From IMG/VR virus record IMGVR_UViG_3300043427_000106, positions 1 through 24,851 of that record: DNA of 24,851 nt; one strand, written 5' to 3'. Position numbers and translations under genes: made by a program. Below, piece after piece: positions 2,371 to 24,851 of the stretch (its first letter is position 1; every line of letters starts with the position of its first letter). This stretch comes from a virus. Its lineage: Duplodnaviria; Caudoviricetes. A model generated the notes under the pieces. That model worked only from the letters and a program-made list of their open reading frames with translations. It searched no databases and was not told the DNA's origin.

Positions 2371-2522
2371 AAGGCTTGTATGAGAACATTCATCGAAAAC
2401 GTGCTCGAATTGAGGCTGGCTCTAAAGAGAAAATGCGACAGCCTGGAAGCAAGGGTGCGCCAACGGCTGCTGCTTTTAAGGCAGCGGCTAAAACGGCCAA
2501 GCCAGTGAAGTCCAAGAAATGA
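2367..2522 (+). CDS. Small, very basic phage protein (51 aa), absent from the ORF track
   Basis: AAGGAG SD; ATGA overlaps at both ends (2367-2370 and 2519-2522). Translation MKGLYENIHRKRARIEAGSKEKMRQPGSKGAPTAAAFKAAAKTAKPVKSKK. Confidence 0.85.
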   Translation: MKGLYENIHRKRARIEAGSKEKMRQPGSKGAPTAAAFKAAAKTAKPVKSKK

Positions 2523-3208
2523 TCCCTATCTGCATTGCGACTGTGCACGGCAAGGGTCTGGGCGTGCTGCTGGAGAGCATCCGGCAGTACGCACCAGAGC
2601 ATCCTGTGTACCTGCGCGGTCCTGAGTCGGTCATTGAAAAGTATGACGCGCACCTGAAAATCTACGGTCAGCCCAGCAACTTTGGAGACGATTACAACCA
2701 GGTCATCCATGCTGCGCTCAAGGATTACGACCAGGTGATCGTGGCCAACGATGACATCGTGCTGACGCCTGACAGCATCAAGGTGTTGTTGGAGGATGTG
2801 GGCATCATCAACACCATGCACAGCGTGCGTGCTGGCTGGGTGGCGTCACGGTCTGACGCAGCGCGGCCATGCCAGAATGTGCGGATCACTGACCAGCCAG
2901 AGCGGCTGCACTTTTACAAATTCCCGTCCGAGGCCCACATCAAGATGGTTGAGGAGGTCAGTCCCATCTTGGGCTGGATCAACAAGGAAGCGTTTGGCGA
3001 GGGATTCCCGCCTCTGAACTGGTACAGCGATGACGTGCATTGCCTGGACTTGCGCCAGCGCGGGTACAGCCACTTTGTGAGCGCCAGCTACGTGCACCAC
3101 ATCGGCAGCCACACCATCGGCTATGACGCCAAGAAGCTGCACGACCAGGCACTGCCTTGGCTTTTAACCCACCGACCTGAATATGCAAAAGCCTGGTTTG
3201 ACGCTTAA
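2519..3208 (+). CDS. GT-A fold (GT2-like) glycosyltransferase
   Basis: N-terminal strand IPICIAT, NFG..YN, DxD-like VIVANDDIVL, acceptor-base motif WYSDD, and C-terminal YVHHIGS. Confidence 0.8.
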   Translation: MIPICIATVHGKGLGVLLESIRQYAPEHPVYLRGPESVIEKYDAHLKIYGQPSNFGDDYNQVIHAALKDYDQVIVANDDIVLTPDSIKVLLEDVGIINTMHSVRAGWVASRSDAARPCQNVRITDQPERLHFYKFPSEAHIKMVEEVSPILGWINKEAFGEGFPPLNWYSDDVHCLDLRQRGYSHFVSASYVHHIGSHTIGYDAKKLHDQALPWLLTHRPEYAKAWFDA

Positions 3209-3716
3209 TCTTGGCTCCGGCAAGGATTGGCGCGAGGACTGTCTGAACGCAGACATTCAGGCTATCAAAGACCCGGATTGGCTGCTGGACATCACGAAAG
3301 TGCCGTGGGGATCGACCATCCGCACCAGGCTTGGCGAGTTGGACATCAAGCCGGGGATGTTTGAAACCATCCTGGCCAACGATGTGCTGGAGCACATCCC
3401 TGATCTGGTCACGGCCATGGCCAACTGCAAGGAACTGCTGCAAGTGGGTGGTCAGATGCACATCCATGTGCCGTATGACCTGAGTTATGGGGCATGGCAG
3501 GATCCCACCCATGTGCGTGCCTTCAACGAGAAGTCTTGGCTCTATTACACCGATTGGCACTGGTATTTAGGCTGGCCGGACAGATTTGAGATGACCCACA
3601 TGGAGATGAGGCTTTCTGAGGTCGGTCAAGCACTAAAATTGCCGCAAGAGGAAATCCTGCGCACACCACGGGCGGTGGATTCCATGTATGTCATTTTGAC
3701 AAAGGCACAGCCATGA
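3183..3716 (+). CDS. Class I SAM-dependent methyltransferase (type 11-like)
   Basis: Motif I LNLGSG, acidic NADI, LLDIT, motif IV ANDVLEHI, GGQMHIHVP, and AWQDPTHVRAF. Its stop overlaps the portal start (ATGA). Confidence 0.85.
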   Translation: MQKPGLTLNLGSGKDWREDCLNADIQAIKDPDWLLDITKVPWGSTIRTRLGELDIKPGMFETILANDVLEHIPDLVTAMANCKELLQVGGQMHIHVPYDLSYGAWQDPTHVRAFNEKSWLYYTDWHWYLGWPDRFEMTHMEMRLSEVGQALKLPQEEILRTPRAVDSMYVILTKAQP

Positions 3717-8186: not shown

Positions 8187-8504
8187 ATGATCCACAGACG
8201 AATTTTTGACCAGAACAAAGAGCAGGGCATCACACGGTATTGGCATGAGAATGCCGAGACAGGTGATGTGACTATTGAGACACAGCAAGACGTCACGGCT
8301 GTGATTGAGGCCAACAAAGCCATTTACAATGCAGTTGACGAGAAAGCCAATTGGACAGGGGAATGGCACTTGGTCGCAAGCATTCCAGAAGCCTTGTATT
8401 ACAAGATGAAGGCCGAGGGAAAGATTGACGATCAGGCGTACATGAAGAAATGGCTCAACGATTCTGACAACCAATTTTTTAGGACTCGACCAGGAAAAGT
8501 ATGA
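8187..8504 (+). CDS. Hypothetical protein downstream of the capsid gene
   Basis: 105-aa ORF (QDVTAVIEANK, WHLVASIP, KKWLND..N..FRT) with ATGA overlap to the next gene. The exact start is uncertain because no SD is visible. Confidence 0.8.
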   Translation: MIHRRIFDQNKEQGITRYWHENAETGDVTIETQQDVTAVIEANKAIYNAVDEKANWTGEWHLVASIPEALYYKMKAEGKIDDQAYMKKWLNDSDNQFFRTRPGKV

Positions 8505-9163
8505 GCAACTACATTGCTGTCTGCACCCCAGCCCGTGACCAGGTTCACACCAACTATTGCTACTGCATGGTAAATTTGGTCGCGTACCACACACTCAACA
8601 CAGAAGACGCTATCAGTCTGAAATTGATGCAGGGCACGATCATTCAAAACCAGAGAGCAGATCTGTGCTTGGATGCCATGCGCGAGGGATGCACACACAT
8701 TTTGTTCATCGACAGCGACATGACCTTCCCACAGGACATGGTGCAGCGCCTGCTCAAGCACGACAAGCCCATCGTGGCCGCCAACTGTGCACGGCGCAGA
8801 ATGCCAACTGGCCCAACGGCGCAGAACTATGATGCCGATGGCAAGCGTGTCCCTGTTTTCACCATGCCAGAGTCCACTGGATTGGAAGAGGTCGGAAGCA
8901 TTGGCACTGGCATAATGCTCATCAAGCGCGAGGTGTTTGAGGGTATGTCCGAGCCATGGTTCGATATGCCTTGGCAGACCACACGGGGTTACATGGGCGA
9001 GGATGTGTTTTTCTGCAAGAAGGCACAGGAACTTGGATACAAGGTCTACATCGACCATGACGTATCCCATGAGATTGGACACATCGGCACTTTTGAATTT
9101 GGGCATCCTCACACCTGGGTGGTGAAAGAGGAAATGGAAAAAGAGGCTGGAAATGGCACTTAG
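8501..9163 (+). CDS. GT-A fold (GT2-like) glycosyltransferase, second one
   Basis: IAVCTPA strand, THILFIDSDM (DxD), GTGIMLIKREVFE, GEDVFFC acceptor-base motif, and GHIG. Confidence 0.85.
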   Translation: MSNYIAVCTPARDQVHTNYCYCMVNLVAYHTLNTEDAISLKLMQGTIIQNQRADLCLDAMREGCTHILFIDSDMTFPQDMVQRLLKHDKPIVAANCARRRMPTGPTAQNYDADGKRVPVFTMPESTGLEEVGSIGTGIMLIKREVFEGMSEPWFDMPWQTTRGYMGEDVFFCKKAQELGYKVYIDHDVSHEIGHIGTFEFGHPHTWVVKEEMEKEAGNGT

Positions 9164-10956: not shown

Positions 10957-12384
10957 ATGGCAGATTCAACTACGACAAATTTGTTACTGACCAAACCAGA
11001 GGTCGGTGCATCGACTGATACTTGGGGGACCAAGATCAACACCGACTTGGACACCATTGATGCGCTGTTTGATGCGGGCCCAGTGCTCAAGGTGACAAGG
11101 GGCGGCACAGGTGTCGGCACATCCACTGGATCGGGCAACAACGTGTTGTCCACTAGTCCGACATTGGTGACCCCAGTATTGGGAACACCAACAAGCGCAA
11201 CTCTGACAAACGCCACAGGCTTGCCCTTGACCACAGGCGTCACAGGCACTTTGCCTGTGGCAAATGGCGGCACAGGCATTACAAGCCTTGGCTCTGGTGT
11301 TGCGACATTCTTGGGAACACCAAGCAGCGCCAACCTTGCTGCTGCGGTAACAGACGAAACAGGCACTGGCGCTTTGGTGTTTGCCAACAGCCCCACCTTG
11401 GTGACTCCAGCCTTGGGCACTCCAGCATCGGGTGTGGTGACAAACCTGACCGGCACAGCCTCCATCAACATCAACGGCACTGTGGGCGCTACAACGGCCT
11501 CAACTGGTGCTTTCACTACGCTATCTGCCACAGGGGTGACAACGGTTCAAGCTGGCACTGCTGCGGCTCCTGCAATCACCACTTCCGGCGACACCAACAC
11601 AGGCATCTTTTTCCCTGCGGCTGACACCATTGCTTTCTCTGAAGGTGGTGCAGAGGCTATGCGCCTCGACTCCTCCGGCAACCTCGGCTTGGGGGTTACT
11701 CCGAGTGCTTGGAGTGCGTACAAAGCATTTGAGGTAAATGCAGGTTCCATTGCAGCTAGTGCCGGAGCAGGTACAGTAATTGTTTCCAACAATGCTTTTT
11801 TTGACGGTACAAACTGGATTTATAAAGCCACAGGCGTTGCATCTGATCATGTTCAAACTGCTGGTCAACACTGGTTTCGTACAGCAGCCTCCGGCACAGC
11901 AGGTAACGCTATTACCTTTACTCAGGCGATGACGCTGGATGCGAGTGGGAATTTGGCTCTTGGTACAACAAGCGCAGGGACAAGATTAGTTCTTGCTACT
12001 GATGATTCAGCAGCAACTGGTCAGCTAAGGTACGCCCGTTCTGCTGATACAAGTTTTTATTGGGAAACTGGTAGAGACAATAATCTTACTGGCGATTTTG
12101 TTTTTAGTAACGCTGCTGGTGGCGCTAAAACCGAACGCGCCCGTATCACTTCCGGCGGGGAAGTGCTGGTGGGCCTGAATTCTGCCACTGGTGTTGCACT
12201 GCTTCAAGTATCCGGGCCTATCCGGACTACAGGCTACACGGTTGCAACATTACCCGCTGGAACTGTCGGCATGAGAACGTATGTGACAGACGCACTAGCT
12301 CCGGTTTTTGGCGTTGCTGTCGCTGGCAGCGGTGCTGTCACTATCCCTGTTTTTTACAACGGCGCAAACTGGATCGTTGCTTAA
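10957..12384 (+). CDS. Tail fibre protein
   Basis: N-terminal anchor [22 protein letters not shown]; Thr/Gly-rich shaft with repeated SPTLVTPxLGTP; three [12 protein letters not shown]-type fibre repeats. Confidence 0.85.
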
Positions 12385-12409
12385 CATTTACCCCTCGAAA
12401 GGAAAAACC

Positions 12410-12478
12410 ATGACTACCACTTGGACAATCACCCAAACCGACTACGAAGTCTCCAACGGTTTCATTACCACAGCCTAA
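12410..12478 (+). pseudogene. Stranded 22-codon 5' fragment of the gene at 13189
   Basis: AAAGGA SD, then MTTTWTITQTDYEVSNGFITTA-stop; 14 of 22 residues are identical to the N-terminus of 13189..13494. Confidence 0.85.
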
Positions 12479-13260
12479 ACTTATGGTCGCCAGATTAACA
12501 ACAGAGGAATTTGTCGCCAAGGCCACTCAGGTTCATGGCGGCAGATACACCTATGACAAAGTGGTTTATGAAACCAAGTTGTCAAAAATTGTTGTTACTT
12601 GCCCGAAGCACGGTGACTATGAGGTGTCTGCAACTATCCACATTCAAGGGCACATTGGAAGATGCTGTGCAAACGAAGCCAAAAAAGGCATTCGTACTCG
12701 AAAAGACACACCAGAATATCTTGAGCGCAAAGCTGCTTTAGCCAAAGAGTCTATGTTTTTTGAAGGTGTGTCGTGCCAGATTTGCGGAAACAAAACACGT
12801 TATTCATGCAATAACTCATGTGCAAATTGCGCCGTTGAGTCAAGACGCAAATCAAACGCCAAAAACAACGGTGTGCGTCATCGCAGAATTAACCAAGCAA
12901 ACATCTACCGATCTGACGCTGGTGTGCAAAAACGGATACAAGACATATACGCTTGCGTCCGAGACATGAGCAAGACGTTTTCCACCGAACTTCATGTTGA
13001 CCATATTGTTCCGCTTAGGGCTAAAAATGCTTGTGGTTTGCATGTGCCTTGGAACCTGATGGTAACAACGGCAAAATACAATCTTAGCAAGCAAAACAAA
13101 ATTGACGATGTGCCCCTTGTCAACACCAGCACCTCAGTGGTGATTCATCAATCCGCTTTACCTTGGAACTTGAAAAAGGAAACTCAAAATGACTATCGCT
13201 TATAACTGGACAGTTTCGGAAACAAACTACGAAACCTCAAATGGATTTATTTTTACGGCA
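12476..13260 (+). mobile_element. Inferred homing-endonuclease cassette: HNH gene plus replacement RBS and 5' end of the target gene
   Basis: Deleting 12476-13260 joins ...ACC ACA GCC to CAT TGG CAA in frame and restores a single intact gene from ATG 12410. Confidence 0.7.
12483..13205 (+). CDS. HNH homing endonuclease with N-terminal Zn-ribbon (DUF723-like) DNA-binding domain
   Basis: TTEEFVAKA..VHG..Y.Y....Y......V.CPKHG module, further CxxC pairs, and HNH core LHVDHIVPL...GLHVPWNL...N.SK.NK. Visibly more AT-rich than its flanks. Confidence 0.9.
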   Translation: MVARLTTEEFVAKATQVHGGRYTYDKVVYETKLSKIVVTCPKHGDYEVSATIHIQGHIGRCCANEAKKGIRTRKDTPEYLERKAALAKESMFFEGVSCQICGNKTRYSCNNSCANCAVESRRKSNAKNNGVRHRRINQANIYRSDAGVQKRIQDIYACVRDMSKTFSTELHVDHIVPLRAKNACGLHVPWNLMVTTAKYNLSKQNKIDDVPLVNTSTSVVIHQSALPWNLKKETQNDYRL

Positions 13261-13494
13261 CATTGGCAATGCACAGCAGTGGATGGTGACTACACAGCCT
13301 CCATCTATTCCACTTGCAGCTTTGCCGCTGCTGAGCCATCTATCCCTTACGCTGATGTAACCATGCAAGAAGTGCTTGGCTGGTGCTGGAACAACGGTGT
13401 GGACAAAGATGCCACCGAAGCTGCTTTGGCTGCCAACATTGCCCTGCAAAAGAATCCTGTGACAGCTACTGGCACACCTTGGGGTCAAGCATGA
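13189..13494 (+). CDS. Small tail-fibre-associated protein
   Basis: AAAGGA SD; AHWQC.AVDG, IPYADVT..EVLGW and C-terminal GTPW, the pattern of small proteins that follow tail fibre genes. Confidence 0.8.
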   Translation: MTIAYNWTVSETNYETSNGFIFTAHWQCTAVDGDYTASIYSTCSFAAAEPSIPYADVTMQEVLGWCWNNGVDKDATEAALAANIALQKNPVTATGTPWGQA

Positions 13495-13646
13495 ACTTGA
13501 ATCTCGAAACCAATGAAGTGCAATTCATCCTGAACGTGCTGGGCGAGATGCCAGCCAAGTCAGGTGTGTGGCCTTTGATTGTGAAAATCAAGGAGCAAGC
13601 TGAAGCTCAAGTTGCTGATGGAGTGAAGGCAGATGACAACAGTTGA
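13491..13646 (+). CDS. Small helical protein (51 aa), possible fibre chaperone
   Basis: ATGA overlap; MNLNLETNEVQFILNVLGEMPAKSGVWPLIVKIKEQAEAQ. The start at 13491 is preferred over 13383. Confidence 0.75.
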   Translation: MNLNLETNEVQFILNVLGEMPAKSGVWPLIVKIKEQAEAQVADGVKADDNS

Positions 13647-13812
13647 CGCAACAGATGCACGCTTGCAGACACATGAAGAAATCTGCGCCATACGCTATGA
13701 GCAGATCAATGCACGGTTAAAGCGCATAGAGGGCATCATGCTCAAGACCGCTGGTGTGATGATCCTGTCGATGGCTGGCACGATCTTTTCTGCTGTGTGG
13801 ATACTCAAATGA
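13633..13812 (+). CDS. Small coiled-coil plus C-terminal TM protein (59 aa, XhlA-like topology), absent from the ORF track
   Basis: MTTVDATDARLQTHEEICAIRYEQINARLKRIEGIMLKTAGVMILSMAGTIFSAVWILK; overlaps both neighbours. Confidence 0.8.
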   Translation: MTTVDATDARLQTHEEICAIRYEQINARLKRIEGIMLKTAGVMILSMAGTIFSAVWILK

Positions 13813-17892: not shown

Positions 17893-19056
17893 ATGATGGC
17901 GACAGAACAGCAAATTTTGGCATTCTTGCAAACACCCGGTTTGAGCGATCAGCAGATTGCCACCGAGTTGCAGCGCATTGGCGCAACAGCGCAGCAGGTG
18001 TCGAACGTCACTGGCGTGCCTGTGGACCAAGTGCAAAGCCGAATTGCTGCTGTCGCTCCGGCAGCAGTTGTCTCGGCTCCAGCATTCTCAACTGCTGGCG
18101 AGACACAGCTTTACAACTACTTGCAGACGCCTGGCCTGACCGATGCCCAGATTCGCGCTGAAGTCAATCGTCTTGGCGTGAATGCGCAACAAGTGTCATC
18201 CATGACGGGCGTGCCTGTTGATCAGGTGCAGTCAAGGCTTGGAACTCCAGTGCCAACAGCCGCGCCAACGGCAGCACCCACGGCAGCACCCACGGCAGCA
18301 CCAACCAACTTGGCTCAGTTTGAAAATATGCTGCGCACAACGCCAGGTCTTACTGATGCGCAGATCTTGGCTGAGATGAATCGCTTGGGTGTCAACAGCA
18401 ACCAGGTGGCAAACATCACTGGTATGCCGATCAACCAAATTCAAAACAGGGTCAGCAACCTGCTGCCATTTGAGAATGCCACGCAAGGATTCCAGCAGCA
18501 GTTTGACAATTACACATCCATCCCAATTGGTGCGCAGTACAACCCTGCTGCTGTCGGTGGAACTGGATCGCCTTACAGCCAGATCATGAGCCAGATGCAG
18601 CCAGTGGGTAATCCTTACGCCACAGTCCGAAGCGGCTTGGCCATGGGTGGCTATGACCCAACCATCTACGACCCCAACCTGCTGTCAAATTTTGTGCGGC
18701 AACGTGCTGCTGAATTGGCAGCCGCTGGGATGCCTGCCCCTTTGGGCTTTGATGGCGGTGGTGGTGATGCTGGGATTTCTGATGGCGGCAATGGGATTGG
18801 CGGAAACAGTACAGCAGGCGGAATGAGCAACCAAGGCGAGGGCGGCCCCGATGGTGTTGGTGGGTGGGCTAAAGGCGGCTTGATTGATCGTGTTGCTGGT
18901 AAAAACCCAGCAGGACCAGACGATGGCCAGATCAACGCCCAAGTTGGCGAGTATGTTGTCAAAAAATCTTCTGTCAACAAGTACGGCAAAAGTCTGCTGG
19001 ACAAGGTCAATGAAGGCAAGATTCCAGCCAAAAAAATGAAATCACTTTTGGGTTAA
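17893..19056 (+). CDS. Putative internal virion protein with three helical repeats
   Basis: AGGAG SD; three ~48-aa repeats, a PTAA linker, a Gly-rich tract and a C-terminal AKGG...GEYVV module. Confidence 0.75.
   Translation: MMATEQQILAFLQTPGLSDQQIATELQRIGATAQQVSNVTGVPVDQVQSRIAAVAPAAVVSAPAFSTAGETQLYNYLQTPGLTDAQIRAEVNRLGVNAQQVSSMTGVPVDQVQSRLGTPVPTAAPTAAPTAAPTAAPTNLAQFENMLRTTPGLTDAQILAEMNRLGVNSNQVANITGMPINQIQNRVSNLLPFENATQGFQQQFDNYTSIPIGAQYNPAAVGGTGSPYSQIMSQMQPVGNPYATVRSGLAMGGYDPTIYDPNLLSNFVRQRAAELAAAGMPAPLGFDGGGGDAGISDGGNGIGGNSTAGGMSNQGEGGPDGVGGWAKGGLIDRVAGKNPAGPDDGQINAQVGEYVVKKSSVNKYGKSLLDKVNEGKIPAKKMKSLLG
18253..18306 (+). repeat. 12-nt coding tandem repeat, (PTAA)x4 plus PT
   Basis: ccaacagccgcg ccaacggcagca cccacggcagca cccacggcagca ccaacc. 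Confidence 0.9.
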
Positions 19057-23496: not shown

Positions 23497-23883
23497 CCCA
23501 AAAAACGCAGCAACAAGCGGATCACGTTTCACGACCCGTCTTTGTTGTCTGCGCCTGGCGTCCTTGAAAGCCTTGTCCTCCACCGTCAGCTTCTCACGGT
23601 ACTCCTGCACCCGCTGAGTGCTGGTGCGGCCTGTTGGCGCTGGCTTTGGCGCATCAGTGCCAGCGCCCATTCGGTACTGAGGCCGCCAGCGGTAGCTGTC
23701 ACCGGCAGGCACCCAGCCAGCAATGTGCACCAGCCCCTGCGCGTGCAAGTCTTGCAGCCTGCGCTGCACCACCCGGCGATTGCTGAACACAATGTCCATC
23801 AGTTCCCTGTCGCACCGTGGCCGCCCATCGGCCAGGGCGATCAGCAGGCTGGGCAGCACCCGAGGCTTGAGGCCAGCCTTCAT
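23473..23883 (-). CDS. Basic HTH/winged-helix-like hypothetical protein
   Basis: ATG 23883 overlaps the upstream stop (ATGA). DRELMDIV..NRRVVQRRLQDLHAQGLVHIAGW resembles a winged helix. Confidence 0.7.
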   Translation of the reverse strand: MKAGLKPRVLPSLLIALADGRPRCDRELMDIVFSNRRVVQRRLQDLHAQGLVHIAGWVPAGDSYRWRPQYRMGAGTDAPKPAPTGRTSTQRVQEYREKLTVEDKAFKDARRRQQRRVVKRDPLVAAFFGSVAKQSS

Positions 23884-24185
23884 TTGCCACACTCCTCGGC
23901 AGCCTTGGCCCGCTGCTCCAGCGCCAGCAAGAACAGCACGCAGCACCCAGCGTGCGCCATGTGCGACAGCCCTGTCTCTGGGTCGTGCTGCTGCCCCTGC
24001 GCATATGCAGCCATGTGCCTAAACGCTGCGGCCATGTAACGGGTCTTTCCATTGGCCACCAGCTTCCAGTTGTCGCGTGCGTATTTCTTTGCGCCAAGGT
24101 CCAAGACCTTGACGATCTCCTCAACACTGCCCCACGGCAGCAGCGTGTAATCTGGCTTTTCTTGGTCGAACTTCATGCCGGTCAT
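23880..24185 (-). CDS. dATP/dGTP diphosphohydrolase domain protein (DUF5664-like)
   Basis: GMKFDQEKPDYTLLP, GAKKYARDNW, AAFRH and DPETGLSHMAHA. GGAG SD, and ATG 24185 overlaps the MTase stop. Confidence 0.85.
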   Translation of the reverse strand: MTGMKFDQEKPDYTLLPWGSVEEIVKVLDLGAKKYARDNWKLVANGKTRYMAAAFRHMAAYAQGQQHDPETGLSHMAHAGCCVLFLLALEQRAKAAEECGK

Positions 24186-24851
24186 TTCAAATTCTCCTGA
24201 ATACGTTGTCCAATCCACCGAACATTTGGCACAGCCCATGAGTTGCCCAATGCCTTGTACCGAGGCCCATCTGGTGACTCATCTTTTTTGCGCCAAGGGA
24301 TGTTGGTGTAGTTATCGGGAAAGCCTTGAAGGCGCTCACACTCAACAGGTGTCAGGCGGCGCACAGCCATTGGTTGAGCAATTGCTTGCGGCTGCCCACG
24401 GCTGTCCATGCAGTATGCAGACCCGTCCAGCAAATACTCTTTGCCCTGCGGCCCAGCCTCTGGGGCGCGGCCTATGCAGTGAGGATGGATGCTGATAGGC
24501 TCAACCACATAAGCCTTTGTATCTGGCGCATGGTGTGAGCCACTGCAAGTGTTTAAGGCTGGAGAAATCACAGGCACTAAATGCTCATCGTCTCCAGACA
24601 TTCCACCCTCACCGGGTCGCCTAGTTCTCAAAGTCTGAACTGTAGACGCAAGAACAAACAAAGGGCATCCAGCATTAACGTGCTGGTCTTCCAGCCCTTG
24701 CTTTGTTCCAAATGTGGTGTCCAGAGTGCTGCTTACTTCTGCTGGCCAGCTACGCTTTGAAGCGCCATCTCCAATGCCTCCGGCAGATTCTTCCCTCGCC
24801 TTTCTGCTCGGCGCAGTATCCCTGCGCACGCTGTCGAACTCAAAAAGAACC
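24182..24851 (-). CDS. C5-cytosine DNA methyltransferase, C-terminal part (5' end outside the window)
   Basis: Motif IX RRLTPVECERLQGFPD and motif X RYKALGNSWAVP; the frame is open to the window edge. Confidence 0.9.
   Translation of the reverse strand, partial: VLFEFDSVRRDTAPSRKAREESAGGIGDGASKRSWPAEVSSTLDTTFGTKQGLEDQHVNAGCPLFVLASTVQTLRTRRPGEGGMSGDDEHLVPVISPALNTCSGSHHAPDTKAYVVEPISIHPHCIGRAPEAGPQGKEYLLDGSAYCMDSRGQPQAIAQPMAVRRLTPVECERLQGFPDNYTNIPWRKKDESPDGPRYKALGNSWAVPNVRWIGQRIQENLK

Follow-up and report, generated by a model that had tools for sequence, protein, structure and literature searches.

Among described systems, the closest to the locus analysed here is the MobA element, a T4-type element in topoisomerase gene 39/60 (10.1101/2022.08.31.505936, where the experimental MobA work is cited as Bonocora et al. 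2011). As reported there, MobA is an HNH gene within phage coding sequence, with no intron or intein. The new start for the downstream part of the target gene overlaps the HNH open reading frame (ORF) out of frame by 8 to 32 nt, and the element carries a diverged homologous segment of 67 to 81% identity, which holds the nick site. Its left insertion point varies over about 20 nt, and repeated recent insertions are found beside empty alleles.

In fungal mitochondria, mobile ORFs bring along a foreign gene end (Allomyces atp6 and Glomus atp6, atp9, cox2 and nad3; PMC3630166), free GIY-YIG genes are duplicated together with the atp9 N-terminus (PMC7487136), and intron-like inserts carrying host-gene fragments have been described (PMC7315562). 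The endonuclease and the foreign fragment yield a hybrid gene, and the native remnant matches the uninvaded allele (PMC3630166); the accessible text of PMC3630166 and PMC7487136 does not report the remnant as a translation leader. The "intronless homing" of the T4 Seg and Mob enzymes likewise involves no intron, and for mobE and others translational coupling to the upstream ORF was proposed (PMC2988022). By that account, Seg/Mob genes are intergenic, they cut at sites hundreds to thousands of bp away from where they are inserted, and no gene start is duplicated. Finally, the CapR/DUF723 enzymes of ICP1 and related phages combine an N-terminal DUF723/CapR-like zinc finger with a nuclease, mostly of the T5orf172 type, and show modular domain swapping (PMC10448857). 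A replacement-start cassette was not found in the accessible parts of PMC10448857, PMC12724721 and the satellite preprint 10.1101/2022.07.18.500453.

Here we analysed a stretch of phage DNA of 24,851 nt (the window). Its element can be read, with a probability of roughly 0.8, as an intron-less, intein-less HNH homing cassette in the 5' part of the phage DUF7936 gene, carrying a ribosome site and a foreign start. Its closest kin are the T4 MobA element and the fungal mitochondrial mobile ORFs. The cassette works like MobA: it carries a new start (overlap, 17 nt) and a diverged segment (67% identity), and its left insertion point varies. It is not MobA, however. The target is DUF7936 instead of a topoisomerase large subunit, and one open 101-codon frame is present instead of split products; MobA leaves the protein in two pieces that have new extensions, whereas here the whole protein is rebuilt downstream. 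MobA needs a ribosomal bypass sequence for protection and no bypass is present here; its homologous segment replaces deleted DNA, whereas here the old start persists as a duplicate, the stub; and here the nuclease domain is at the C-terminus of the enzyme.

The fungal elements differ by their organelle setting, by mostly C-terminal replacement, by other enzyme families and in that a ribosome site need not be provided. The window comes from a tailed phage, as its SU10-type portal, capsid and adaptor genes show, and spans the structural and lysis region. Unlike the Seg/Mob genes, the element is inserted 22 codons into a gene, and its cut site is a predicted one. The first-pass annotation had proposed the fungal analogy, which fits well: the remnant matches the uninvaded allele and the carried fragment is foreign (52/54 nt for the stub versus 35/54 for the replacement, both against the intact allele L002). 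It had known of no such case in a phage tail gene. For a full replacement start with a retained stub, no description in phage was found in the literature searched either, most subscription papers lying outside the search, but the MobA element is a partial precedent.

Anatomy of the cassette in the window

Behind the tail-fibre-like gene, the gene order is a 22-codon ORF, a 240-aa HNH gene and a 101-aa DUF7936 gene (PF25590), with the following features.

10957..12384, + strand: tail-fibre-like gene (context, outside the element); PHROG 18345 (E 1e-10) and 9942 (E 1e-8)
12398..12405, + strand: native ribosome-binding site of the DUF7936 gene, AAAGGAAA; site in common with locus L264
12410..12478, + strand: stub, the recipient's own first 22 DUF7936 codons plus a TAA stop at the insert's left edge, likely the HNH translation leader; 62/66 nt identical to the intact L002 start
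12476..13287, + strand: mobile cassette, approximate extent; left edge at 12473-12476, right edge a crossover just past 13287
12483..13205, + strand: HNH endonuclease gene, 240 aa, intact frame; PHROG 26577, 1035 (endonuclease VII), 681 and 559
12993..13082, + strand: putative HNH catalytic core H171-N200 (D173, H174, N191, N200), all four invariant in 10 aligned relatives
13137..13172, + strand: C-terminal tail V-x-x-H-x-S-A-L-P-W-N-L, marker of the DUF7936-associated clade, conserved as protein
13175..13182, + strand: replacement ribosome-binding site within the HNH coding sequence, AAAGGAAA; predicted pairing of -4.9 kcal/mol, equal to the native site
13189..13287, + strand: DUF7936 5' part of foreign origin, brought by the cassette; 35/54 and 22/30 nt identical to L002, versus 160/170 beyond
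13288..13494, + strand: recipient-derived 3' part of DUF7936, forming with the foreign start the full 101-aa gene; PF25590 (E 7e-25, whole model)

As noticed at first pass, two starts lie behind the same Shine-Dalgarno sequence. The window has exactly two copies of the 8-nt AAAGGAAA: one at 12398, ahead of the stub start at 12410, and one at 13175, ahead of the second start at 13189. The second copy falls within the HNH ORF, whose 3' end runs 17 nt into the DUF7936 gene behind it. Between the stub stop and the HNH ATG are 4 nt, and this ATG lacks a ribosome site. In an 18-codon core, stub and second start share 12/18 residues and 36/54 nt. Since the next-best matches are far lower (28/54 nt among 49,487 window positions on both strands; 6/18 residues), this likeness is not due to chance. 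The 14 of 22 identical residues counted previously are reached only if the start-anchored M and T are added to the 12 end-anchored residues, and a 2-residue gap separates the two groups.

Seven of the 12 identical core residues indeed use different synonymous codons. The described contrast of C-ending and A/T-ending codons applies to five of these seven changes, but GGT/GGA and ACA/ACG do not fit. Synonymous recoding is no signal of resistance, however: among 392 pairs of empty alleles with 10 to 12 identical residues, 27% reach a proportion of synonymous differences of at least 7/11, with a mean of 0.54. The supposed codon-bias contrast also failed. In the window, GC3 is 0.64 in the stub, 0.38 in the replacement and 0.44 in the HNH gene, but 0.36 in the second half of the upstream gene, and in 15 loci compared pairwise the difference between stub and replacement (0.46 vs 0.37) was not significant (p 0.13).

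Removal of 12476-13260 restores one in-frame gene, as predicted: 12410-12475 joined to 13261-13494 is an open 99-codon frame. The foreign tract, however, continues to about 13287. The right edge is placed there because the mismatches to L002 end at 13287, the next one being at 13371. The carried 5' end is foreign, in agreement with the annotation, and the nearest neighbors of the window's replacement start are other replacements. In it, TTT at 13252-13254 replaces a conserved Thr codon, three codons before the His codon. The insertion into coding sequence without intron or intein was also confirmed: a stop codon is located at the left edge, the HNH ORF fills the insert, and no Rfam intron family matched at E ≤ 1 in 12000-13800, in contrast to the ribozyme core of a group I or group II intron or the in-frame splicing domain of an intein.

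At three loci (L264, L265 and L267), the end of the window's upstream gene is followed by a single intact DUF7936 gene, preceded by that ribosome site. In L264, the spacer, ribosome site and first codons are as in the window and lead into the intact gene. We conclude that the window stub is at the native position. Two contigs of 1363 nt, one each in runs X1 and X3, cover 12200-13494 without a difference, and X1/X3 are possibly the source of the window. A scan for promoters and terminators found none.

Empty alleles and recent exchange

The best 80 of 370 DUF7936 loci were kept. No nuclease was detected upstream of DUF7936 in 66 of these 80, one was present in 11, and 3 were too short. The empty alleles read GF[IV]TTAHW continuously through the junction, a check that had been named beforehand. 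The intact allele L002 matches the window stub at 52/54 nt over the core; against the second copy, it shows 19 differences in the 54 nt before the His codon and 8 in the next 30. Two full DUF7936 copies at one locus, the case named at the outset as refuting, were seen at 0/129 loci with a full DUF7936 gene, and no tail-bearing locus had an upstream DUF7936 copy past model position 35.

The predicted structure of DUF7936 is confident (mean pLDDT of 90). Its fold had no PDB match at E ≤ 0.001, and the only matches at this threshold were DUF7936 or unnamed viral proteins. A literature search with the term DUF7936 found no paper. Cultured relatives are annotated as hypothetical, or as lysozyme in two distant rows. 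The target was first called a tail gene; DUF7936 adjoins a tail-fibre-like gene and is at most a possible tail gene.

Five occupied loci were paired with their best empty alleles. The stub was identical at 40-45/45 nt, the replacement at 26-35/54 and the 3' part at 160-165/170 (in the case of L010, two different best empty alleles underlie the stub and 3' values). Identity returned 0 to 27 nt after the junction: three pairs regain it at the His codon, the other two some 25 nt further on. Counted from the first Trp, the foreign tract is just 54 to 81 nt long in 5/5 pairs. In the L029/L070 pair, 150 nt upstream are also shared (27-30/30). Thus, the stub stems from the recipient and the replacement is a short foreign tract. 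Furthermore, in a pool of 49 empty and 36 replacement sequences, the nearest neighbor was an empty allele for 14/15 stubs and another replacement for 31/36 replacements. The expectation that occupied alleles share the junction was not borne out, since the left junctions scatter over about five codons.

The same HNH gene stands behind different stubs. In run X5, a 774-nt contig over 12387-13154 has 17 differences and a 6-nt gap compared to the window; among the differences listed (6 are unlisted), the stub has 9, none beyond 12472, and some 670 nt of the HNH gene have 2. A contig of run X6 has a third type of stub, followed by the initial 123 nt of the HNH gene without change. Joints of the empty allele, with net 785 nt removed, are also present in both runs. 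Both states thus occur in X5 and X6; together with the 66 empty loci and the constant position of the tailed HNH genes before DUF7936 (below), this makes the element optional at one fixed locus. These runs belong to two studies other than the possible source of the window, and near-identical HNH genes lie in them behind stubs unlike the window's. This shows that stubs were exchanged around one element, whereas exchange alone does not give the direction.

The HNH family, its C-terminal tail and the stub

HNH relatives were collected by searches with the HNH protein and its alignment, and the counts given here, a sample, refer to the matches listed; the loci L001, L085, L102 and L263, identical to the window, were counted once. 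The protein consists of an N-terminal DUF723/CapR-like zinc finger, central Cys pairs and a C-terminal HNH core. Its first Atlas matches were DUF723 clusters (score 0.98). It had no Pfam match at the cut-off, the Pfam HNH families included, and no solved relative by sequence, and its predicted structure (pLDDT of 53) was too poor for use. The residues D173, H174, N191 and N200, which we take to be catalytic from their roles in HNH enzymes, are invariant in intact frames down to relatives of 50% identity, pointing to an HNH-type nuclease domain with intact putative catalytic residues.

The C-terminal SALPW tail marks the association with DUF7936. Among the matches listed, 37/37 distinct SALPW-tailed HNH genes precede DUF7936 (36 recognized by profile and L192 by pattern), as opposed to 2/97 tail-less ones with enough downstream DNA. 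The tail is conserved as protein, while its synonymous codons vary freely. The SALPWNL at 13137-13172 in the window resembles the HVPWNL of the HNH core itself (profile probability of 85%, 8 columns) and is possibly an internal repeat. A remnant or mimic of the G-x-P-W at the DUF7936 C-terminus was also considered for the tail and was dropped at a profile probability of only 8%. Occupied DUF7936 loci are present in many uncultured aquatic phages; a cultured phage with the SALPW-tailed clade was not among the best 25 of 268 records.

Two N-terminal types are found on the common core and tail: family A with the DUF723/CapR-like zinc finger, and family B with a different N-terminal half. Among the matches listed with an intact 5' end, a stub is present at 17/27 family A loci and 1/9 family B loci. 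These counts leave out L110, L117, L118 and L125, which are truncated at the 5' end, and the assignment was made by hand for L081 and L195 (the candidate in L195 is not DUF7936-like, and the locus was counted as stubless). In family B without a stub, the HNH gene begins on the host ribosome site and often on the first codons of the host gene. Family B loci fused at the host start codon are L047:2333-3001, L120, L121, L122, L126, L194, L195 and L180. Loci L108 and L119 have stub and replacement type in common and HNH genes of different families, and L029 and L126 likewise share the replacement. HNH modules are swapped, and replacements partly track their hosts.

The start of the HNH gene differs between stub and stubless loci. 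A ribosome site was absent (weaker than -3 kcal/mol) in 18/18 stub loci, whereas 16/18 stubless loci had one of -4.5 kcal/mol or stronger, among the matches listed. Site strength here means predicted pairing to a generic anti-Shine-Dalgarno motif, taken from general knowledge. The stub stop is positioned -8 to +12 nt from the HNH start. In the simplest reading, HNH translation would be coupled through the stub, in line with the proposal made for T4 mobE (PMC2988022), and the stub is then probably not dead.

Other nucleases also occur around DUF7936. At L078:2500-2991, an unrelated HNH_3 and AP2-like endonuclease occupies the same site. It begins on a ribosome site of host type, and the DUF7936 start behind it is of the replacement type (GYIFCAHW). 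Either a second family has adopted this strategy or the first has undergone turnover. A second HNH gene just after DUF7936 was seen in L081:4015-4494 (HNH_3) and, as judged by eye, in L087, and in these cases endonucleases bracket the gene. Tail-less HNH genes lie directly 5' of DUF7936 genes with empty-type starts at L032:2-148 and L261:1033-1608. The DUF7936 site thus seems to be a nuclease hotspot.

Predicted mechanism and alternative explanations

The first-pass idea of a homing cassette holds at its core, but the emphasis now lies on a non-synonymous change at the predicted site, the greater length of the foreign tract, left junctions that vary and a stub that likely works. Thr at the third position before His is present in 45/49 distinct empty alleles, 1/20 close occupied alleles and 0/24 family A replacements, and homology is lost between His-4 and His in 17/18 stubs (by eye); the loci are related, and neither the Thr nor the stub counts are independent events. 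The family-wide difference between the alleles is thus non-synonymous, in the Thr codon, and the synonymous recoding is not remarkable. The family B replacement L195 keeps GFITTAHW unchanged.

On these grounds, we propose that the cassette likely spreads by homing. An active HNH enzyme would nick empty alleles at the GF[IV]TTAHW codons, and repair would proceed from the occupied genome. The recognition site would extend over the Thr codon at His-3 and the His-Trp codons; a stub lacking the right half and a replacement with a changed left half could then both escape. In MobA, a diverged homologous segment was reported not to be enough by itself to prevent nicking (10.1101/2022.08.31.505936), and therefore resistance cannot be read from the sequence here. 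The right edge would be a homologous crossover shortly past His-Trp, and the left edge may arise by short homology or microhomology at the stub end. Ribosomes ending the stub would restart on the HNH gene, which would tie its synthesis, at a reduced rate, to the host's late-gene ribosome site. The target gene is likely fixed by the shared HNH core and SALPW tail and not by the swappable N-terminal domain.

Several observations speak against a homing cassette: L195 keeps its codons, half of the loci are stubless, the left junction is variable, and across 12 loci the similarity of the HNH genes correlates weakly with that of the replacements (rho 0.19-0.34, p 0.07-0.09). The similarity of the replacements correlates strongly with that of the 3' gene parts (rho 0.75). 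From these two correlations, HNH gene and replacement are not a fixed unit over long times. A more far-reaching version of the proposal is tentative, and we would sooner bet against it than for it. It holds that this is a distinct and active class of splicing-free phage homing cassettes that may hijack both ends of host gene translation. The severed start would serve as an obligatory leader and the rebuilt start would be resistant by amino-acid change; the C-terminal SALPW module would provide the aim while N-terminal DNA-binding domains are swapped, and the class would thereby drive new N-terminal sequences of a single conserved protein from the tail region through phage populations in freshwater and the sea.

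An ordinary free-standing homing endonuclease of the T4 Seg/Mob type, co-converting the neighboring allele, would leave the stubs as imprecise by-products of left-end repair that head for deletion and have no translation role. The stubless state of 18/36 loci with intact 5' ends among the matches listed, with the HNH gene directly on the host ribosome site, agrees with this, as do the correlation of the replacement with the 3' gene part and a stub cut down to 11 codons (L111). We nevertheless consider it improbable, since the foreign tracts are so short in all five pairs, the HNH genes of stub loci never have their own ribosome site, and stub ends and replacement changes meet at the insertion point, whereas Seg/Mob cut sites are far off, by the available account (PMC2988022). 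Passive spread of one old insertion is very unlikely. Here, the nuclease would be inactive or non-homing and without drive, and general recombination of mosaic phages would exchange the stubs and 3' ends on either side of it. Recombination at the border is indeed free, L002 sharing the stub and not the upstream gene, and L264 sharing the upstream gene with a distant DUF7936; moreover, different stubs on one HNH gene give no direction. Passive spread is at odds, however, with the intact frames and invariant putative catalytic residues down to 50% identity, with several distinct left junctions, with two N-terminal families and the unrelated HNH_3-AP2 gene at the same site, and with the directional loss of the Thr codon in replacements. 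An HNH gene lying between tandem paralogues, the first copy having decayed, or a self-splicing intron restoring the first start, is hardly credible. The faint likeness of the SALPW tail to the DUF7936 C-terminus would suit paralogues, but the tail is closer to PWNL of the HNH core, none of the 129 loci has two full copies, no tail-bearing locus has an upstream copy beyond model position 35, and the 3' part and the stub match the same empty allele. An intron is opposed by the lack of an Rfam match and by the mere 4 nt from stub stop to HNH start.

The homing cassette, as favored here, would be a homing endonuclease able to reside inside a phage gene with neither an intron or intein nor a split protein. 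It is documented over dozens of genomes with matched empty alleles and is not one odd case. From it follows a precise prediction of the target, namely the GF[IV]TTAHW codons, in which the Thr codon at His-3 would be decisive; it also predicts that the stub acts as a leader. Natural pairs, L029/L070 among them, offer material for studying insertion by nicking HNH enzymes with long homology on one flank only. Caution is advised with DUF7936 genes, which are chimeric at the 5' end.

Elsewhere in the window, a methyltransferase-like, an Anp1/glycosyltransferase-like and one unclassified gene lie among the head genes (2519-3716 and 8501-9163) and possibly serve virion or DNA modification. A 387-aa ORF at 17893-19056, without a reliable Pfam family, has repeated helical-looking units and a run of PTAA repeats. 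On the minus strand, at 23880-24829, a dATP/dGTP diphosphohydrolase (PF18909) is located beside a C5 cytosine methylase fragment.
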